Virus record (IMG/VR): IMGVR_UViG_2850808358_000014
Strand: one strand, 5' to 3'
Source of the DNA: a virus
Lineage: Duplodnaviria > Heunggongvirae > Uroviricota > Caudoviricetes
Length of the DNA stretch: 48,456 bases
Of the stretch, positions 1 to 47,065 are shown one piece after another (within the stretch, counting starts at the first letter, position 1; every line of letters begins with the position of its first letter). The position numbers and the translations under genes were made by a program. The notes under the pieces are model-generated. The model saw only the letters and a program-made list of their open reading frames with translations. It did not search any database and was not told the origin of the DNA.

Positions 1-1011
1 GTGTTCACGAAAACAGCGCAGCTCTGGCATAACGCCACGCCGCATCCGCACTGGTGCGGCCTGACCCTGCTGGCCATCGATGGTGTGTTCTGGCGCACAC
101 CGGATACACCAGAGAACGATGCAGCCTTCCCCCGCCAGACACATGCCGGGAACCCGGCGCTCTACCCGCAGGTCAAAATGGTCTGCCAGATGGAACTGAC
201 CAGCCATCTGCTGACGGCTGCAGCCTTCGGCACGATGAAGAACAGCGAAAATGAGCTTGCTGAGCAACTTATAGAACAAACCGGCGATAACACTCTGACG
301 TTAATGGATAAAGGTTATTACTCACTGGGACTGTTAAATGCCTGGAGCCTGGCGGGAGAACACCGCCACTGGATGATACCTCTCAGAAAGGGAGCGCAAT
401 ATGAAGAGCTCAGAAAACTGGGTAAAGGCGATCATCTGGTGAAGCTGAAAACCAGCCCGCAGGCACGAAAAAAGTGGCCGGGACTGGGAAATGAAGTGAC
501 AGCCCGCCTGCTGACCGTGACGCGCAAAGGAAAAGTCTGCCATCTGCTGACGTCGATGACGGACGCCATGCGCTTCCCCGGAGGAGAAATGGCGGATCTG
601 TACAGTCATCGCTGGGAAATCGAACTGGGATACAGGGAGATAAAACAGACGATGCAACTGAGCAGGCTGACGCTGAGAAGTAAAAAGCCGGAGCTTGTGG
701 AGCAAGAGCTGTGGGGTGTCTTACTGGCTTATAATCTGGTGAGATATCAGATGATTAAAATGGCGGAACATCTGAAAGGTTACTGGCCGAATCAACTGAG
801 TTTCTCAGAATCATGCGGAATGGTGATGAGAATGCTGATGACATTGCAGGGCGCTTCACCGGGACGTATACCGGAGCTGATGCGCGATCTTGCAAGTATG
901 GGACAACTTGTGAAATTACCGACGAGAAGGGAAAGGGCCTTCCCGAGAGTGGTAAAGGAGAGGCCCTGGAAATACCCCACAGCCCCGAAAAAGAGCCAGT
1001 CAGTTGCTTAA
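1..1011 (+). CDS. insG: IS4 transposase InsG, C-terminal 336 aa (5' end cut by window edge)
   Basis: ORF translation matches the E. coli IS4 transposase C-terminus as I recall it ([17 protein letters not shown] ... KKSQSVA); the GTG at position 1 is an edge artefact. Confidence 0.92.
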
Positions 1012-2289: not shown

Positions 2290-2674
2290 TTACCGCCGTA
2301 AGTGCTCCGGCTTCCTCCACTGGTAAGTATTTTTCGCGCTCTCCCTCCGTTGTTGAGAACGGCGACGATATGCCAGCAACTCAAGGACTCTTGTTCGTAT
2401 GTTGCGCATATCCACGCCGTTAAGCTCAATACCGTCACGGCGCATCACCTCAGCCACCACACGCGCGTAATTTTCAGCGGTGACGCTGTCCGGCTGCGTG
2501 GCCACCTGTTTGCCTGTTGCCTGACAGATTCCGGTAATACGGCGGATTACTTTCAGTAGTTCGGCGTCGGTCATGGTTATGGTTTCCATAGTGATGGGGG
2601 AACAATTTCTGTAATCTGCGAAGCTGGCGATCGGTCAGACTCAAATGCCTGGCAACTTCAGTCTGAGTAGCCAC
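2290..2674 (-). CDS. small HTH DNA-binding protein, reading frame apparently disrupted
   Basis: GTG-start ORF with SD GAGGTG (N-terminus MATQTEVARHLSLTDRQLRRL, HTH-like) overlaps a 99-aa ORF in another frame; the first frame ends in a His/Arg-rich tail. Confidence 0.45.
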
Positions 2675-2749
2675 TGTTCACCTCGCCCAAAAATCTCCCC
2701 TCATGCGTTTTAAACATGCATCTTGCGAACAACTTTATGAAACGCGGCA

Positions 2750-2850
2750 TATATGTCCGGTTTGAGTGTTCAATTTTTGCGCATGTCCGGTTCGCAGAAA
2801 GCGCATTTCTATATTTTTCAAATGGTTAACCTTCAGAGAAACCGGACATG
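2750..2850 (-). promoter_or_regulatory. promoter/operator region upstream of the HTH gene with three ATGTCCGGTT repeats
   Basis: Two direct copies and one inverted copy between the terminator at about 2940 and the gene start at 2674. Confidence 0.4.
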
Positions 2851-2932
2851 GTTTCCGAAAAATTTTCATAAATAGTGAAATTCTGCGCCGCTCCCGCCCC
2901 GTGGCAGGCCACCCCACCGGAAGGACCCGCAA

Positions 2933-2962
2933 AAAAAAGCCGGATTTCTCCGGCCTTTTCTC
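2933..2962 (-). terminator. rho-independent terminator after the 137-aa gene
   Basis: On the minus strand, GCCGGA-loop-TCCGGC hairpin followed by a run of 8 U. Confidence 0.6.
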
Positions 2963-3374
2963 AGATGGTTTTCAGTATGCGATCGATTTCGCCGTCATCA
3001 CCCTGATATCTGCCATCGTATGCCATGCCAGGGCTTACGGCCTGCGGGCTGTGCATGTCCATAAAGTTTTCAAAGGCTGCGGTAAGCTCCGGCGCAACCT
3101 TCGGGCGTTCCTGCTCTATGGTCATGTTCAGGATTTCCCGGGCATTATCGACGCTAATACATGGCACGTTTGCCATTGCACGTAACAGCGGCTGATAGTC
3201 GTCAGATTCATGAAGCGCCATAATCGCATCAGTGCGCGGCTTGTCCTGCTCTTCCAGTTTGTTAAGTTGATATATAGCCTCGTAGGTTGATAAACCTCTG
3301 TCCGCCATTGCCCGCGCTTCGGCTTTAAATTTACTCGCCAGCGGTAGCGCCATGATAGCTTCATTGATTGCCAT
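2961..3374 (-). CDS. hypothetical protein, 137 aa, last gene of the capsid operon
   Basis: Intact ORF directly downstream of the gpD-like gene and followed by a terminator; no family recognised. Confidence 0.6.
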   Translation of the reverse strand: MAINEAIMALPLASKFKAEARAMADRGLSTYEAIYQLNKLEEQDKPRTDAIMALHESDDYQPLLRAMANVPCISVDNAREILNMTIEQERPKVAPELTAAFENFMDMHSPQAVSPGMAYDGRYQGDDGEIDRILKTI

Positions 3375-3386
3375 CGTTCCCCCTGC

Positions 3387-3676
3387 TTATCGCACCAGTG
3401 GCTGAACGGATACGCCAGAACCCGCAAAAGCGGCGCATTTTTTCGCGTCGGTGTCGACGCTCTCGGGCCAGTTAACGGCGGCGATATTAAATATCCCCGT
3501 CTTGTAACACTGTGCTGATTTCTGCTTTGACGTGTCCACGGGTACGCCGTCAGATAAACAGCCTTGCCAGATTCCTGACCATCCCACGCCTTAAACTCGC
3601 CATTGTCCGCCAGCATCAGCGGAAAAATGTACCAGCGTCGTGGCAACCTGCTGTGTGCCTGCATATAACTCAACAT
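3387..3676 (-). pseudogene. lambda gpD-like head decoration protein, frameshifted
   Basis: Two overlapping ORF fragments; joined they read ...EFKAWDGQESGKAVYLTAYP|VDTSKQ...KKCAAFAGSGVSV, which resembles the lambda gpD core (KLVAWDG...KKRTAFAGTAISIV); the break is at a C run near 3541. Confidence 0.6.
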
Positions 3677-3700
3677 ATGGAGTGCCCATAGAATCTCCCG

Positions 3701-4756
3701 TTAACCAATTTTCACAGTAACAAATTTGCGGATATCTGCCGGAACCGGCTGCGGTGCGCTGTGCGTCTGCACGTACTCAATCGCCGGATCGCCGCTCTCA
3801 ATCCAGTTTTTCGGGTAGTACATGTTTTGCGTTGCGCCCGTTCTTACCGCTTCCGGATCCATAATCGCGCCATAGGCCACCAGACCTTTATTGCTGGTGT
3901 TGCCCAGGACAAGCAAATCAGGCTCAAGGAAATATTTTTCGGTGCCGTCGCTGTCGGTGTATTTGCCGGAATAGACGATAAGGGCCAGATCACCCAGATA
4001 GCCTTTAAAGCTCACCACTTCGCCCAGGTTTTTACACGCCAGCTCTGCGGCGGATTCTGAACCACGGGAAAGATCGTACAGCTCGCGGAATTTTTTAAAG
4101 CTACGTAAGGTGCGCCATACGTCAGCGCCCATAATCATGACGTTGGCGGGGCAGCTGGCCTGTTCGGCGTATAGCTCGATGTCATCTGTCGGATCATGCG
4201 TCTCTTTATTCTGCTCAGACCATTTTTTTCCTGGCCCCTGATGGACAATGCAGTTTGCCGGCATATTCCAGTCGATTTCATAGCGTTCTATGCCTTCGCC
4301 TTCAATGATGTTTTTTCCGGTCGTGACCGCATTCACTGCCAGCCATTCCACACGCGCTTTAATGGCGTTTATCTGGCGGCGCATGTTGCCAGTAATGAGG
4401 CGCATACGTCGCCAGGTGGGGTCGTTAAGCAGTGCCGGATCTTCTCCAGCCATGCGCATGATGGTTTTTGATGGATCGATTTCGTGTTTGGGTTTCATGT
4501 AGCCAGGGCGGATAGTGCTTGTTTCGTACCCTTTATCACGCTGAACCTGGCTACCCACCACAGGCGAACAAAACGCCGACATGGTGACTTCTTCAATGTC
4601 CAGGGTATCCAGCATGACATCTTGTGTGTTGAAGGTTGCTACTTTCGGGAAAAACAGCGTGGTAAACAGCGGACTGAATTTAAATTCCGGGATATCCCCG
4701 CGATTCAGGTACGCGAAAAGCTGGTTAGTGTTAAGTGCCGTTGCTTTGTCTGCCAT
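3701..4756 (-). CDS. lambda gpE-like major capsid protein, 351 aa
   Basis: Collinear similarity to lambda E as recalled (PGYMKPKHE, DPTDDIE, KGYLGD, YPKNW motifs) and near-identical length. Confidence 0.85.
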   Translation of the reverse strand: MADKATALNTNQLFAYLNRGDIPEFKFSPLFTTLFFPKVATFNTQDVMLDTLDIEEVTMSAFCSPVVGSQVQRDKGYETSTIRPGYMKPKHEIDPSKTIMRMAGEDPALLNDPTWRRMRLITGNMRRQINAIKARVEWLAVNAVTTGKNIIEGEGIERYEIDWNMPANCIVHQGPGKKWSEQNKETHDPTDDIELYAEQASCPANVMIMGADVWRTLRSFKKFRELYDLSRGSESAAELACKNLGEVVSFKGYLGDLALIVYSGKYTDSDGTEKYFLEPDLLVLGNTSNKGLVAYGAIMDPEAVRTGATQNMYYPKNWIESGDPAIEYVQTHSAPQPVPADIRKFVTVKIG

Positions 4757-4962
4757 TATTCACCCTCATGAGTCTGATTCATGCCAAGCGCCGCACGTAA
4801 ATAGGCGCGTACCTGCCAGCCTGTTGACGGCTCAACCATCGCCAGCGGATCAAGTCCTGCCGCAATGCCCGCTTTTACGTTCTGCTGGTGGCGTTCCTTG
4901 AGCGCCTCCACGATATCGGGGCTTATGTAAACTGTCACCCCGCCTTTTTTCTCTTCTGTCAT
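4756..4962 (-). CDS. hypothetical protein, 68 aa, translationally coupled to the capsid gene
   Basis: Its stop overlaps the capsid ATG (TAATG); no family recognised. Confidence 0.5.
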   Translation of the reverse strand: MTEEKKGGVTVYISPDIVEALKERHQQNVKAGIAAGLDPLAMVEPSTGWQVRAYLRAALGMNQTHEGE

Positions 4963-4991
4963 AGTCAGAAATTCCTTTTCGACTTAAAAAA

Positions 4992-5019
4992 TTATAACTG
5001 GATGTACATCCAGTTATAA
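4992..5019. promoter_or_regulatory. perfect ~27-bp palindrome TTATAACTGGATGTACATCCAGTTATAA upstream of the capsid operon
   Basis: Perfect dyad with a CTGG-N8-CCAG core about 30 bp upstream of the 68-aa gene; candidate operator. Confidence 0.45.
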
Positions 5020-5139
5020 TTATAATCATAGTTGCATTTTGTGCAATAGAATTGAGTTGCATTGCAAATTATGAAATGATTTACGGCAACAGTAGTCACC
5101 ATGCTGTTAACCTCGTAAGCAAAAGCCCGATAAGCTTCC

Positions 5140-5196
5140 TCCTGTACTTATCGGGCTTTTTTTGGGTACAAAAAGCCGGATTTTCTCCGGCCTGTG
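5140..5196. terminator. pair of hairpin plus T-run terminators (bidirectional)
   Basis: CCCGATAAG...CTTATCGGG followed by T7 on plus; GCCGGA-TTTTC-TCCGGC followed by U-run on minus, almost identical to the hairpin near 2940. Confidence 0.5.
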
Positions 5197-5199
5197 CGT

Positions 5200-5610
5200 T
5201 CAGAACGGAATATCATCACCGTAGGGGTCATCGTCTCCCGCTGGTGGCTGATTACCCTGTGTGCCTGTGGTTTTGCGTCTGTTCCCGCCAGGGCGTGCCG
5301 CTCGGGCACTGATTACGCTGTCGGCAATAACCTGATAACCCTGCCGCGTTTCCCCGTTCTGTCCGGTCCACTGGCTGACCTGCATCGTGCCGGATACGCT
5401 GGCAACGTCGCCTTTTTGATGTTTAGCCAGGAAGTCGGCCTGCTTACCAAATGCCATCACCGATAGCCATAACGTCGCCTGTCCGTCCTGTGCCTGGCTG
5501 CATGGCAGCGATACCGCCATACGCGCCAGCGTCATCGGTGTGCCCTTGCTGGTCTGTTTTACCTGCGGGTCGTCCACCAACCGTCCGTAAGCTGCTATCT
5601 GTGCTGTCAT
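5200..5610 (-). CDS. ssb: single-stranded DNA-binding protein (short phage/plasmid type)
   Basis: OB-fold-like N-terminus, Gly/Gln-rich linker and acidic C-terminal tail ending DDDPYGDDIPF. Confidence 0.85.
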   Translation of the reverse strand: MTAQIAAYGRLVDDPQVKQTSKGTPMTLARMAVSLPCSQAQDGQATLWLSVMAFGKQADFLAKHQKGDVASVSGTMQVSQWTGQNGETRQGYQVIADSVISARAARPGGNRRKTTGTQGNQPPAGDDDPYGDDIPF

Positions 5611-5885
5611 GATTCCACCTCTCCGGTTTTAACGTTGATGGTTGTTACCTGTTCCGCTTCGGCAATCTCCCGTTCTGTCAGCGTGGCAAAGTTTGCCGCT
5701 GCTGTGGTCATGAATGCGCTTATCAGGTCGGGATGTTCCTTCGCGTATCCTTCCCCCGCGTGGCGGTCTATCGTTCTGATTGCCACCTTTAAAGCGTGCT
5801 CTGTCATGTCTAACGCGCGATATTTCGGTTCTGTTCTGTCTCTGCGTTTTTTGAGTGATTTATTAAATTTTCCTGAAGTGTGCAT
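5607..5885 (-). CDS. hypothetical protein (92-aa ORF; true start may be internal)
   Basis: ORF between the origin and ssb; no family recognised. Confidence 0.45.
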   Translation of the reverse strand: MHTSGKFNKSLKKRRDRTEPKYRALDMTEHALKVAIRTIDRHAGEGYAKEHPDLISAFMTTAAANFATLTEREIAEAEQVTTINVKTGEVES

Positions 5886-5929
5886 GTTTATTTTTACCCC
5901 CTCGTTTAAAAAGTTTTGAGTTGTGCCTC

Positions 5930-6160
5930 CCCTTGTCTACCTTATCTACCTTGCTGGCCCTCATGCCAGTAATGGCGCGGCTTTCAGCGGGTAGAGTGTT
6001 TTTATCCACTATCTACCCCGTGTCTACCTCCCTGTCTGATTCAGGTAAAATCAGGTAGAGAGGGTAGATAGTGGGTAGACAGTAAAAAAAAGCTGTCTAC
6101 CTAACTTAATGTACTGAATTAAATGTATTTTCCTTTGCTCAGGTAGACAGCAATTACAAA
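5930..6160. repeat. replication origin: about 10 iterons of consensus YNTCTACC in both orientations plus an AT-rich stretch
   Basis: TTGTCTACC, TTATCTACC, CTATCTACC, GTGTCTACC, CTGTCTACC and inverted GGTAGAG/GGTAGAT/GGTAGAC copies directly 3' of the primase gene. Confidence 0.6.
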
Positions 6161-6163
6161 AAA

Positions 6164-7917
6164 TTATAAAAACGCGTCGCACTCGTCTGTTGTTATTGCG
6201 TTAGTCTGCGTTACCCCCTTAACTTTCCGCGTAATATATTCATGTCCGTAAACTTTTGCGGCAGGCTTCATAGCCTTGCCAAAGTCATTTACGTTTAGCG
6301 GTTTGCTCCTGCCTGCGTATGCCATAAACGCCAGATAGACGCGGTAAAGGCTGTTCCTGGTCGTGTACTTCACTGAATCACCACCGCCACCCATCATCAG
6401 GCCGCGCGCTTCCTCCAGAAAATTCAGGAACTGGCAAAACTCAATAACCGGATCCGTCTGTTGCTTTATTGCCAGTGCTTCATCACCGTCACGCTGTTCC
6501 AGTAGTAAAGCCCGTGCCTTCTCAGGGTCGGTAAAGTTCGCCAGCAATCGGCGGATAATAACGGGGATTTCAGCCGCAATCTTTTCCGGTAGCTCCCTGT
6601 CTTTTTCGGCCTCACTGACGATATTGTCGAAACGGAAAATCACGCGACGACGTGCCACACCTCCGGCCCGTTCGGTGAATATCATCGGGTTGTTGTCGGT
6701 CGCCAGCACCACCGCCCTGATTACCGCCGTGAAACGCTTTTCATATTTCGGGTTAATTTCCACGGGTCGCCGCCCGTGATTTTCTTGATGCCCGTTCCTT
6801 CGCCTGTATATTTCGGCTGGTCAGCCAGGACGATAAGACGACTCCCGACAACCTGCGCACGTCCACCAGCATCATCAAGCGATGTCATTTCAGCGCTTAC
6901 CGTGTTCTGTTTCCCTGCCAGAAGGCTGGCTATGTGTGTGAATGTACTTTTACCGCTCCCGCCGTCTCCGGTGGCCTCAATAAACATCTGCCAGTCGTAC
7001 CGGTTCGCCATAATCATGTAAAGCGCGGCACATATGCGCATCATCTTGCGCGGGTCTTTTCCGGCTGCGTGATCAAGCCATTTATGAAAGTTTGGCGCGT
7101 TGTCGCGGATATTCTCCCCTGGTGCTGGTGGCGTGTACTCAATGCCGTTGTGCGTGGTGATCCAGTTCTCCGGCGTGTGCGGGGAAAATTCCCCCGTTTT
7201 CAGGTTAAGCACACCATTAGTGAACGGTAGCAAATCACTGGACGGCTCGCCCATCGGGTCAGCAATAACTTTTAACGCTTCAACGGCGTTATTAATTGCC
7301 CGCTTGCTGAATGTGGCCCCGTGTTCTGAATAAACCGCCACCATTTCGCGGCTCAGTTCCATTGTGCTGACCGGACACCATATCCCGCCGCGCCATACGT
7401 GAACGATTTCACTTTCCGGATGCACACAAACGCCATCAAATCGACCAGCAAGCATCTGTGCGCGCTCACTGTCTGCCATCTGCGAAAGTTGCGCCTTTTG
7501 CTTTACCGGAAGCTCAATGACCAGACCATCAGAAAGATTCTGGCGTTCACGGGCCAGATATTCGCGCCAGTTCTGCACCTCCTGGCCGTGCATACCCTCA
7601 AGATAAAAATTTGCATCCTGTACACCTGCCGCCGCCAGCTTCTGACCAATCGCCTTGATCATTACAGGCTCAAGATGTCCGGCTCTGTATATGCGTGCTG
7701 ATTTTCTGCCATCCGGCACAATTTGCAGATTATCCAGTTCGGATAGCTGCTGCTCTCCAAGCCACACAGGAGGCTCATTATCTCCGGCTGTACGCGCGTC
7801 ATGTTCCTGCCACTGTTTCGCGTGTGCCCAGGCATCACTACCCGCAAAGATAATTACCTCTGTGTCTTTGTGTTTTATTCCGCGTGGCTGTTTTTTTACG
7901 TTCGGTGCCAGTTTCAT
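6164..7917 (-). pseudogene. P4-family primase/helicase, frameshifted
   Basis: 398-aa fragment with toprim-like N-terminus and Walker A GDGGSGKST, plus a 199-aa fragment in another frame; the join ...ITGGDP|VEINPKYEK falls at a G/C run near 6765. Confidence 0.75.
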
Positions 7918-8213
7918 TTTTTACCCCTGAATACGTTAAGCATCTTTTTTATTTCCTGAATATTGGCGCGTGCTTTCTCCCTGCTGGTGGGCACGTTACG
8001 CGGTACGGCCTGCACAAGAGAAAAATCACGGTCGAACTGATAAACAGGCATCACGCAATCATATTCGTAGCCTTCACGACGGTAGGTTACGCGCCGTTCC
8101 TCCACGCCCTTAATTATTACCGTGCCGCCGTACTTATCGCGGTAAATATCCCCGCGCATGAATTTAGTGCGAGTTTTGCCGCTGGCAGTTAAGCCAGGAT
8201 ATTTAAGTTTCAT
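7914..8213 (-). CDS. hypothetical protein, 99 aa
   Basis: Intact ORF whose stop overlaps the primase start; no family recognised. Confidence 0.5.
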   Translation of the reverse strand: MKLKYPGLTASGKTRTKFMRGDIYRDKYGGTVIIKGVEERRVTYRREGYEYDCVMPVYQFDRDFSLVQAVPRNVPTSREKARANIQEIKKMLNVFRGKK

Positions 8214-8218
8214 TATTT

Positions 8219-8452
8219 TTATTCTCCGGTGTGGGGCGCTTTATACTGGTCGTGTAATGTCTCTATTTCCTGCAACTCATTTATTACAGGCTCAAGAAGC
8301 GTTATTAATGCCGTGACAATCCTTGATTTCTGTTTATCACGCTCATTATCGCCAAATGTTTCCAGACACATTTGCAATATTTCCAACATATTTTCACTGT
8401 GAGAAAGTGCAAGAAATGCGCGGTCTGTTATTTCAATGTAAATATCACGCAT
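8219..8452 (-). CDS. hypothetical protein, 77 aa (AT-rich)
   Basis: Intact ORF abutting the IS110-family left end. Confidence 0.5.
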   Translation of the reverse strand: MRDIYIEITDRAFLALSHSENMLEILQMCLETFGDNERDKQKSRIVTALITLLEPVINELQEIETLHDQYKAPHTGE

Positions 8453-8459
8453 AACCCCG

Positions 8460-45830: not shown

Positions 45831-45835
45831 GCCAG
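45831..45835. repeat. GCCAG target-site duplication, copy 2
   Basis: Identical to 8883-8887. Confidence 0.8.
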
Positions 45836-46843: not shown

Positions 46844-47065
46844 TTAATAGGGGCACCCCCCATTTTCACAATCAGCAACAAGAATATTTTTAGCGTCATT
46901 CAGCGACCGCGTTGCGATGTATCGGATACATTCCAGGGCGAACAATGTGTATTCTTCCCGTTCTTCCTTTCGTGCAAGCTCTGCTGTGCATTCAATATCA
47001 ATAAGCGCGTGCATCAGCGTAGTGAGTGCGGCGGCGGCTGCGTCCGGTGTGGTTTTATTGTGCAT
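46844..47065 (-). CDS. hypothetical protein, 73 aa
   Basis: Start overlaps the stop of the upstream gene (ATGCACAATAA); 3' end abuts the IS right end. Confidence 0.5.
   Translation of the reverse strand: MHNKTTPDAAAAALTTLMHALIDIECTAELARKEEREEYTLFALECIRYIATRSLNDAKNILVADCENGGCPY

Follow-up and report, generated by a model that had tools for sequence, protein, structure and literature searches.

Organization of the locus

The DNA analysed here, a stretch of 48,456 nt that is called the window throughout, contains a 278-nt gap (5886-6163) between two minus-strand ORFs, of which one (6164..6763) lies upstream in the sense of the genes and the other (5607..5885) downstream. The upstream ORF is the distal part of pri-rep, an initiator gene of the P4-alpha family, and the downstream ORF encodes a 92-aa protein, followed by a single-strand DNA-binding protein (SSB). 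The gap itself is occupied by an array of short repeats, or iterons, whose elements are given in Table 1. Read in the sense of the genes, the order is stop codon, one iteron, the AT-rich spacer, one inverted iteron and three direct iterons, then two iterons that are inverted and one that is direct, a conserved block of 39 nt, two more inverted iterons and the next gene. The placement of the array after the primase stop in the first-pass annotation holds in that the array is directly 3' of the gene, but the gene is on the minus strand, so that the array extends towards lower coordinates. The AT-rich tract, which had been described as following the array, sits inside it, between the stop-proximal iteron and the other nine.

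Table 1. Coordinates of the iteron array and of the neighbouring replication genes in the window.
Feature	Coordinates	Strand	Remarks
Iteron 1, TGTCTACC	6142..6149	-	starts 15 nt past the Pri-Rep stop, on the gene's sense strand
AT-rich spacer, presumed DNA-unwinding element	6102..6141	.	40 nt, 25% GC
Iteron 2, TGTCTACC	6094..6101	+	inverted relative to the gene
Iteron 3, TGTCTACC	6074..6081	-	opens a tandem triplet with spacing of 11 and 9 nt
Iteron 4, TATCTACC	6063..6070	-
Iteron 5, TCTCTACC	6054..6061	-
Iteron 6, TGTCTACC	6021..6028	+
Iteron 7, TATCTACC	6010..6017	+
Iteron 8, ACTCTACC	5990..5997	-	core intact
Conserved non-iteron block	5951..5989	.	GC-rich; sense strand CGCTGAAAGCCGCGCCATTACTGGCATGAGGGCCAGCA (begins CTGAAAGCCGCGCCATTACTGGC); flanked by convergent iterons
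Iteron 9, TATCTACC	5943..5950	+
Iteron 10, TGTCTACC	5934..5941	+
Equivalent of the EcCICFT073 'ori'	5862..6159	-	corresponds to L002 (CFT073 island) 9976-10283; difference between pJP2027 (pri-ori) and pJP2028 (pri-Δori)
Pri-Rep initiator gene, P4-alpha family	6164..7917	-	D5_N, SF3 helicase/DUF5906, C-terminal winged-helix origin-binding domain
Pri-Rep ORFs after the frameshift	7917..6721 and 6763..6164	-	stop codon 6164-6166
92-aa protein, phrog_1231	5607..5885	-	first gene past the origin in every E. coli relative examined
SSB, island-encoded	5200..5610	-	single-strand DNA-binding protein of the replication module

Composition of the iteron array

Exact matches to the motif YNTCTACC number nine at 5934-6149, with a single further match in the rest of the window, and a tenth copy, ACTCTACC on the minus strand at 5990-5997, keeps the TCTACC core without fitting the YN prefix. 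The roughly ten copies in both orientations within about 230 bp that the first-pass annotation had reported are thus borne out as nine exact copies and one core-only copy in 216 bp. Counted by their cores (TCTACC/GGTAGA), the ten sites are divided into five on the plus strand and five on the minus strand, compared to seven cores in the remaining ~48 kb. When 278-nt segments were scored over the 48 kb, the core count exceeded six at the array locus only, and no second TCTACC cluster was found anywhere in the window.

The earlier reading had been staked on the motif being more frequent than expected for the local base composition, which it is: among 5000 shuffled versions of the 278-nt gap with dinucleotides preserved, none had any 6-mer at ten copies (0/5000; mean maximum 2.9, largest 9). 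As this test scored any over-represented 6-mer, it corrects for the motif having been picked post hoc. Regarding the arrangement of the sites, the iterons on the two sides of the AT-rich spacer (6142-6149 and 6094-6101) are oppositely oriented, in a convergent manner. A DnaA-box-like sequence, TTATCCACT, is located between iterons at 6001-6009 and matches TTATCCACA at 8 of 9 positions. It was rejected as a feature of the origin family, being found only in the window, in the E. coli relative L001 and in CFT073 and being absent from the other lineages, and it is unlikely to be a conserved element of the origin.

The initiator gene and its product

Intact Pri-Rep homologues have 582-584 aa. Relative to an E. 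coli locus of 95% identity, in which the gene is intact and encodes 584 aa, the window copy lacks one base in a run of C (GACCCCG to GACCCG, at ~6766). This deletion shifts the last 199 aa into another frame and divides Pri-Rep into ORFs of 398 and 199 aa, so that the helicase is no longer joined to the origin-binding domain. A single assembly, CP026877.1, from which the window itself comes, has this exact 398-aa product on record, and the indel may be a homopolymer sequencing error. The ORF 7917..6721 matches D5_N and DUF5906, and the ORF 6763..6164 matches Pox_D5.

The intact homologue is also matched by TIGR01613 ('phage/plasmid primase, P4 family', primase_Cterm), and BLASTP aligns it with residues 324-762 of P4 alpha at 40% identity (E = 5e-113). 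A match to PDB 1KA8, the P4 origin-binding domain, covers its residues 488-579 (E = 7e-7), and its helicase core matches PDB 7OLA (E = 3.7e-15), which is PriRep5 of SaPI5 (PMC9371898). Judged by these homologies, Pri-Rep is demonstrably a helicase with an origin-binding domain.

The N-terminus (residues 1-140, window 7498-7917) is the most variable part of the protein, with 45-98% identity among the E. coli relatives, compared to 94-99% for the helicase. No Pfam match was obtained for residues 1-160, even at E <= 10, and the comparison of the N-terminal 140 aa with the primase domain of alpha (residues 1-320) by hhalign gave a probability of 0.3%, with no similarity. The single-sequence AlphaFold model of residues 1-150 has a mean pLDDT of 54, too low for a fold search. 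The 'primase' label, which the first-pass annotation had also applied, derives from the P4-alpha helicase and origin-binding parts only, and no primase catalytic domain is detectable. Since the N-terminus has neither a Pfam match nor a detectable similarity to the primase domain of alpha, the primase function of the protein is putative.

Conservation among relatives

The gap region was aligned with its homologues, giving nine E. coli regions of 68-95% identity with 9-11 TCTACC cores each. Counting and aligning the iterons, as the first-pass annotation had proposed, separates the cores clearly from their surroundings: 47 of the 60 core columns are invariant, compared to 40 of the 172 columns elsewhere (Fisher p = 5.5e-14), the latter being those upstream of the ribosome-binding region. 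The iteron cores are under purifying selection. The two bases 5' of the core vary by lineage, being TG or TA in the group of the window and mostly CC, CA or CT in the others, so that the YNTCTACC unit, for all its nine exact matches, contains the invariant part TCTACC preceded by two variable bases. Across the eight E. coli relatives, identity in the origin-binding domain is 92-99% in seven and 83% in one. Because the 5' bases differ by lineage while this domain stays nearly identical, the recognised unit would most simply be the hexamer TCTACC.

The AT-rich spacer behaves differently from the cores: in 11 homologues its length (38-50 nt) and low GC content (13-34%) are kept, and its sequence diverges, a pattern as expected of a DNA-unwinding element, which it is presumed to be. 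The block at 5951-5989 is nearly invariant across the E. coli lineages and Raoultella and partly conserved in Xenorhabdus. It forms a second spacer of 37-39 nt between convergent iterons, in a length class that matches the AT-rich spacer. At the stop-proximal end, most relatives carry two iterons in tandem (CTGTCTACCCTGTCTACC; e.g., L001 12953-12974 and the CFT073 island, L002), compared to one in the window, as seen by comparison of 6150-6160. This loss is consistent with slippage deletion of a 9-10-nt unit, and Raoultella likewise has a single stop-proximal iteron.

Further relatives were searched for with the pattern TCTACCNNNTCTACCN{22,30}GGTAGA on both strands of one genome per species (596 Gb). 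This pattern is too permissive, as its 18 specified bases and nine gap lengths would give ~150 chance matches by our own estimate, and most of the 120 loci retrieved were noise, having 3-6 cores nearby. Pri-Rep homologues were present in only three of these loci, in Shigella flexneri (90% identity), Xenorhabdus japonica (57%) and Raoultella ornithinolytica (46%). All three have 11-13 TCTACC copies directly 3' of the gene (11 in Raoultella, 13 in Xenorhabdus), compared to only 1-3 in the rest of each locus (7.6 kb), with site order and orientation nearly as in E. coli. The position of the array immediately 3' of pri-rep is thereby shared by eight E. coli loci, Shigella, Xenorhabdus and Raoultella. 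Two other loci of the scan, in Dictyobacter aurantiacus (L061) and in the MAG SMAG_U4510 (L115), showed 11-12 TCTACC/GGTAGA copies in ~350 bp without a Pri-Rep homologue, and these clusters may be unrelated repeat arrays.

Identity of the island and the tested EcCICFT073 origin

The 3.3-kb replication module was found in 427 of 5426 complete E. coli genomes (at least 80% coverage) and the gap itself in 564. In complete relatives, the module lies inside an island of ~11-15 kb between phoQ and roxA, with the gene order (seen in L001 and L002) of integrase, small HTH regulator, Icd-like gene, DUF4222, pri-rep, gap, phrog_1231 gene, ssb and perC, followed by capsid or packaging genes. In the window, homologues of island genes, among them the Icd-like gene, DUF4222, pri-rep, ssb and the capsid gene, are present at 2293-8452 and from 46856 to at least 48053, and the int and alpA genes of the island would fall past the end of the window.

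The gap region of the window is 92.0% identical to positions 1383959-1384282 of E. coli CFT073 (H58), whose island corresponds to EcCICFT073 in its genes, among them those for the capsid and head decoration that were described for the latter (Fillol-Salom et al. 2018, ISME J, PMC6092414). In that study, Gram-negative phage-inducible chromosomal island (PICI) origins were located immediately 3' of the initiator gene, and a pri-ori fragment sustained a thermosensitive plasmid at 44 °C; deletion of either ori or pri cut colony numbers significantly at the restrictive temperature, the loss upon ori deletion in the CFT073 system being worded as 'significantly reduced', with complete loss not stated in the text (PMC6092414). 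A TCTACC-type motif is absent from the supplements of this paper. Of the primers used for pJP2027-2029, rep-1m, 3c, 4c and 5m map exactly to the CFT073 gene and rep-2c maps with one indel, placing the end of the pri-ori construct at L002 ~9976 and that of pri-Δori at 10284. Thus, the tested 'ori' corresponds to L002 9976-10283, which is intergenic and has its aligned counterpart at ~5862-6159 of the window.

In both loci, the iterons have the same position, order and orientation and contain the core TCTACC; the AT-rich spacer and the conserved block are also common to the two, as are the flanking DUF4222, pri-rep, phrog_1231 gene, ssb and lambda-E-type capsid gene. They differ in the number of iterons, 11 in EcCICFT073 compared to 10 in the window, where one stop-proximal tandem unit is deleted, and in the state of the window copy, in which pri-rep is frameshifted, perC is absent and ISEc20 carrying Mu is inserted.

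As a separate observation, the same pri-rep/ori/ssb module is joined to varied downstream modules in different islands (L001 5089-11430, L003 1-1193 and L007 1-1574, compared to 2293-4962 in the window). The downstream module of the window and CFT073 is limited to a capsid gene of the lambda-E type and a decoration gene, and that of L001 has a full set of HK97-type capsid, portal, protease and TerS/TerL genes, resembling capsid-forming PICIs; a ClpP-capsid fusion is found in L003, and TerS and a capsid gene in L007. Judged by gene content, this variety indicates that modules are exchanged between classical and capsid-forming satellites.

Comparison with SaPI, P4 and iteron-plasmid origins

The origins of SaPIs and other PICIs are defined by six to twelve short penta- or hexanucleotide iterons (PMC9371898), which in SaPIs and Gram-positive PICIs are located immediately downstream of the rep ORF, and the 10 TCTACC cores of the window fall within this range. 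Further likenesses are an AT-rich region, the opposite orientation of the iterons that flank it, and an initiator that combines a self-loading SF3 helicase with a C-terminal winged helix, the two halves of which lie in different frames in the window. The iteron sequence is different, and the AT-rich region, central in SaPIs (PMC9371898), is off-centre here, with one iteron between it and rep and nine beyond it. In relatives, these numbers are mostly two and eight or nine, so that the array is asymmetric in all members of the lineage. Moreover, compared to SaPIs, a second spacer of similar length is present here, which is GC-rich and conserved in sequence.

For P4, the comparison was based on the GenBank annotation, PDB 1KA8 and PMC6092414. 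Both systems have 8-bp sites in both orientations with a tandem spacing of 9-11 nt, and the P4 crr lies directly 3' of the alpha gene. The initiators are related as well, through 40% identity in the helicase and origin-binding domains and the match of the C-terminus to 1KA8. However, the type 1 repeat bound by alpha is TGTTCACC, in contrast to TGTCTACC or YNTCTACC in the window; between the annotated repeat GGTGAACA and the iteron GGTAGACA, six of eight positions match and two differ. In addition, P4 is bipartite, with its annotated ori ~4.7 kb from crr, in contrast to the single cluster of EcCICFT073, and alpha has an N-terminal primase domain, outside the part aligned by BLASTP (alpha 324-762), that is not detectable in Pri-Rep. 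The papers retrieved with the P4 iteron string were all unrelated, and a paper on P4 cosmids gave nothing on the binding of alpha.

Classical iteron plasmid origins (RepA/pi/TrfA) have tandem direct repeats of ~17-22 bp, a WH1-WH2 Rep protein and conserved DnaA boxes. The sites in the window have instead a 6-nt invariant core, occur in both orientations and are associated with an SF3 helicase initiator. This class was set aside, the lone DnaA-box-like TTATCCACT also missing in more distant relatives.

Function of the array and alternative explanations

The array is most probably, at roughly 90%, the replication origin of a PICI of the EcCICFT073 type, as seen by its sequence and gene context. 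Since a 92%-identical segment is, by primer mapping, the published and tested ori, the window origin is, in terms of homology, an allele of an experimentally characterised and already known origin type. The first-pass proposal of an iteron-type origin 3' of rep, in the style of phage satellites, is in this way supported by an orthologue of tested function.

Chance or compositional bias as the source of the array, or a structured RNA or hairpin element in its place, are ruled out by the shuffles, in which the observed count was never reached, by the conservation of the cores across genera and by Rfam scores below threshold. The hairpin-type matches at 6000-6091, which are weak and reflect a 39-nt imperfect inverted repeat in the array, belong to eukaryotic miRNA families and score 22-25 bits compared to gathering scores of 59-100. 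An operator, to which Pri-Rep or another island protein binds mainly to regulate the 92-aa gene, ssb and the capsid genes, would be compatible with an array that ends ~50 nt before the start codon of the next gene and with the constant place of the 92-aa gene behind it in the E. coli relatives, and origin iterons of other replicons can double as autoregulatory sites. Such a main function is nevertheless unlikely, as neither a sigma-70-like promoter nor an intrinsic terminator was found in a scan of 5550-6350, as the 40-nt AT-rich spacer of conserved length and composition would be left unexplained, and as the orthologous segment was needed for plasmid maintenance with rep under an arabinose-inducible promoter (PMC6092414). 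A secondary regulatory role of the array may exist.

The similarity to P4 raises a further reading, in which the array acts in cis like crr, as an enhancer that stimulates an origin elsewhere in the island, given that Pri-Rep and alpha are homologous and that P4 has crr, and not its distant annotated ori, as the cluster directly 3' of the alpha gene. This is very improbable, since TCTACC sites form one cluster only (11 sites) in the complete EcCICFT073 island, apart from one stray copy, and the plasmid was sustained by the pri-ori fragment on its own, detached from the remainder of the island (PMC6092414).

Proposed mechanism of initiation

For a PICI origin with the iteron statistics, conservation pattern, orthology to the tested ori and initiator-domain homology established here, we infer the protein-base contacts, the site of melting and the mode of priming from the SaPI model (PMC9371898) and from the P4 alpha model. 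After induction by a helper phage and excision, the island's Pri-Rep would act as the initiator, being predicted to be a self-loading SF3 helicase with a winged-helix C-terminus homologous to the origin-binding domain of alpha. It would bind the TCTACC iterons, placed in both orientations around the 40-nt AT-rich spacer, then oligomerise, possibly as hexamers at convergent sites, melt the spacer and load as the replicative helicase. The unwound DNA would be coated by the island-encoded SSB, and priming would be carried out by the uncharacterised N-terminal domain of Pri-Rep or by the host DnaG.

More speculatively, and with a small probability in our view, this origin family could comprise more than iterons and an unwinding element, with the block at 5951-5989 serving as a dedicated priming or host-factor site, where a host or helper primase is recruited for initiation. 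A dependence on such a primase may be considered because the N-terminus of Pri-Rep is hypervariable and shows no detectable primase similarity. Separately, and within the same tentative proposal, orphaned origins could be fired in trans by a co-resident island, as suggested by the near-identity of the origin-binding domain among most E. coli relatives.

State of the island copy in the window

The window origin is probably orphaned, as judged by the frameshift in Pri-Rep, the missing stop-proximal iteron, the absent perC together with a short decoration gene, and the splitting of the island. Due to the frameshift, it would not be drivable in cis, unless the indel is the sequencing error considered above, and it could fire only with an intact Pri-Rep of the same specificity supplied in trans. 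The perC gene is missing between ssb and a 68-aa gene, and the head-decoration homologue is called as 32 aa, compared to 111 aa in CFT073. Signs of decay are also present at the other side of the island (window 1-1011 and 3390-3689), where an ORF of a DDE_Tnp_1 (IS4-type) transposase runs off the start of the window (1-1011).

The island is split at 8453/46856, resuming at 46856, by a 38.4-kb insert (8456-46850) that consists of the IS110-family element ISEc20, whose transposase gene is in turn interrupted by a complete phage Mu. This prophage, 96% identical to the reference phage and in inverted orientation, extends from 8888 to 45830, between the two copies of a 5-bp target duplication, GCCAG (8883-8887 and 45831-45835), and its genes include mom/com (9003-9837) and gin (9920-10513).

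Significance

The analysis brings little new biology, as it assigns the array to a described and tested origin type of Gram-negative PICI satellites and identifies the surrounding region as an EcCICFT073-like island. Its by-products are descriptive: TCTACC as the invariant unit of the sites, a site order kept from Escherichia to Xenorhabdus, and an island inactivated by a frameshift and by the insertion of ISEc20 and Mu.
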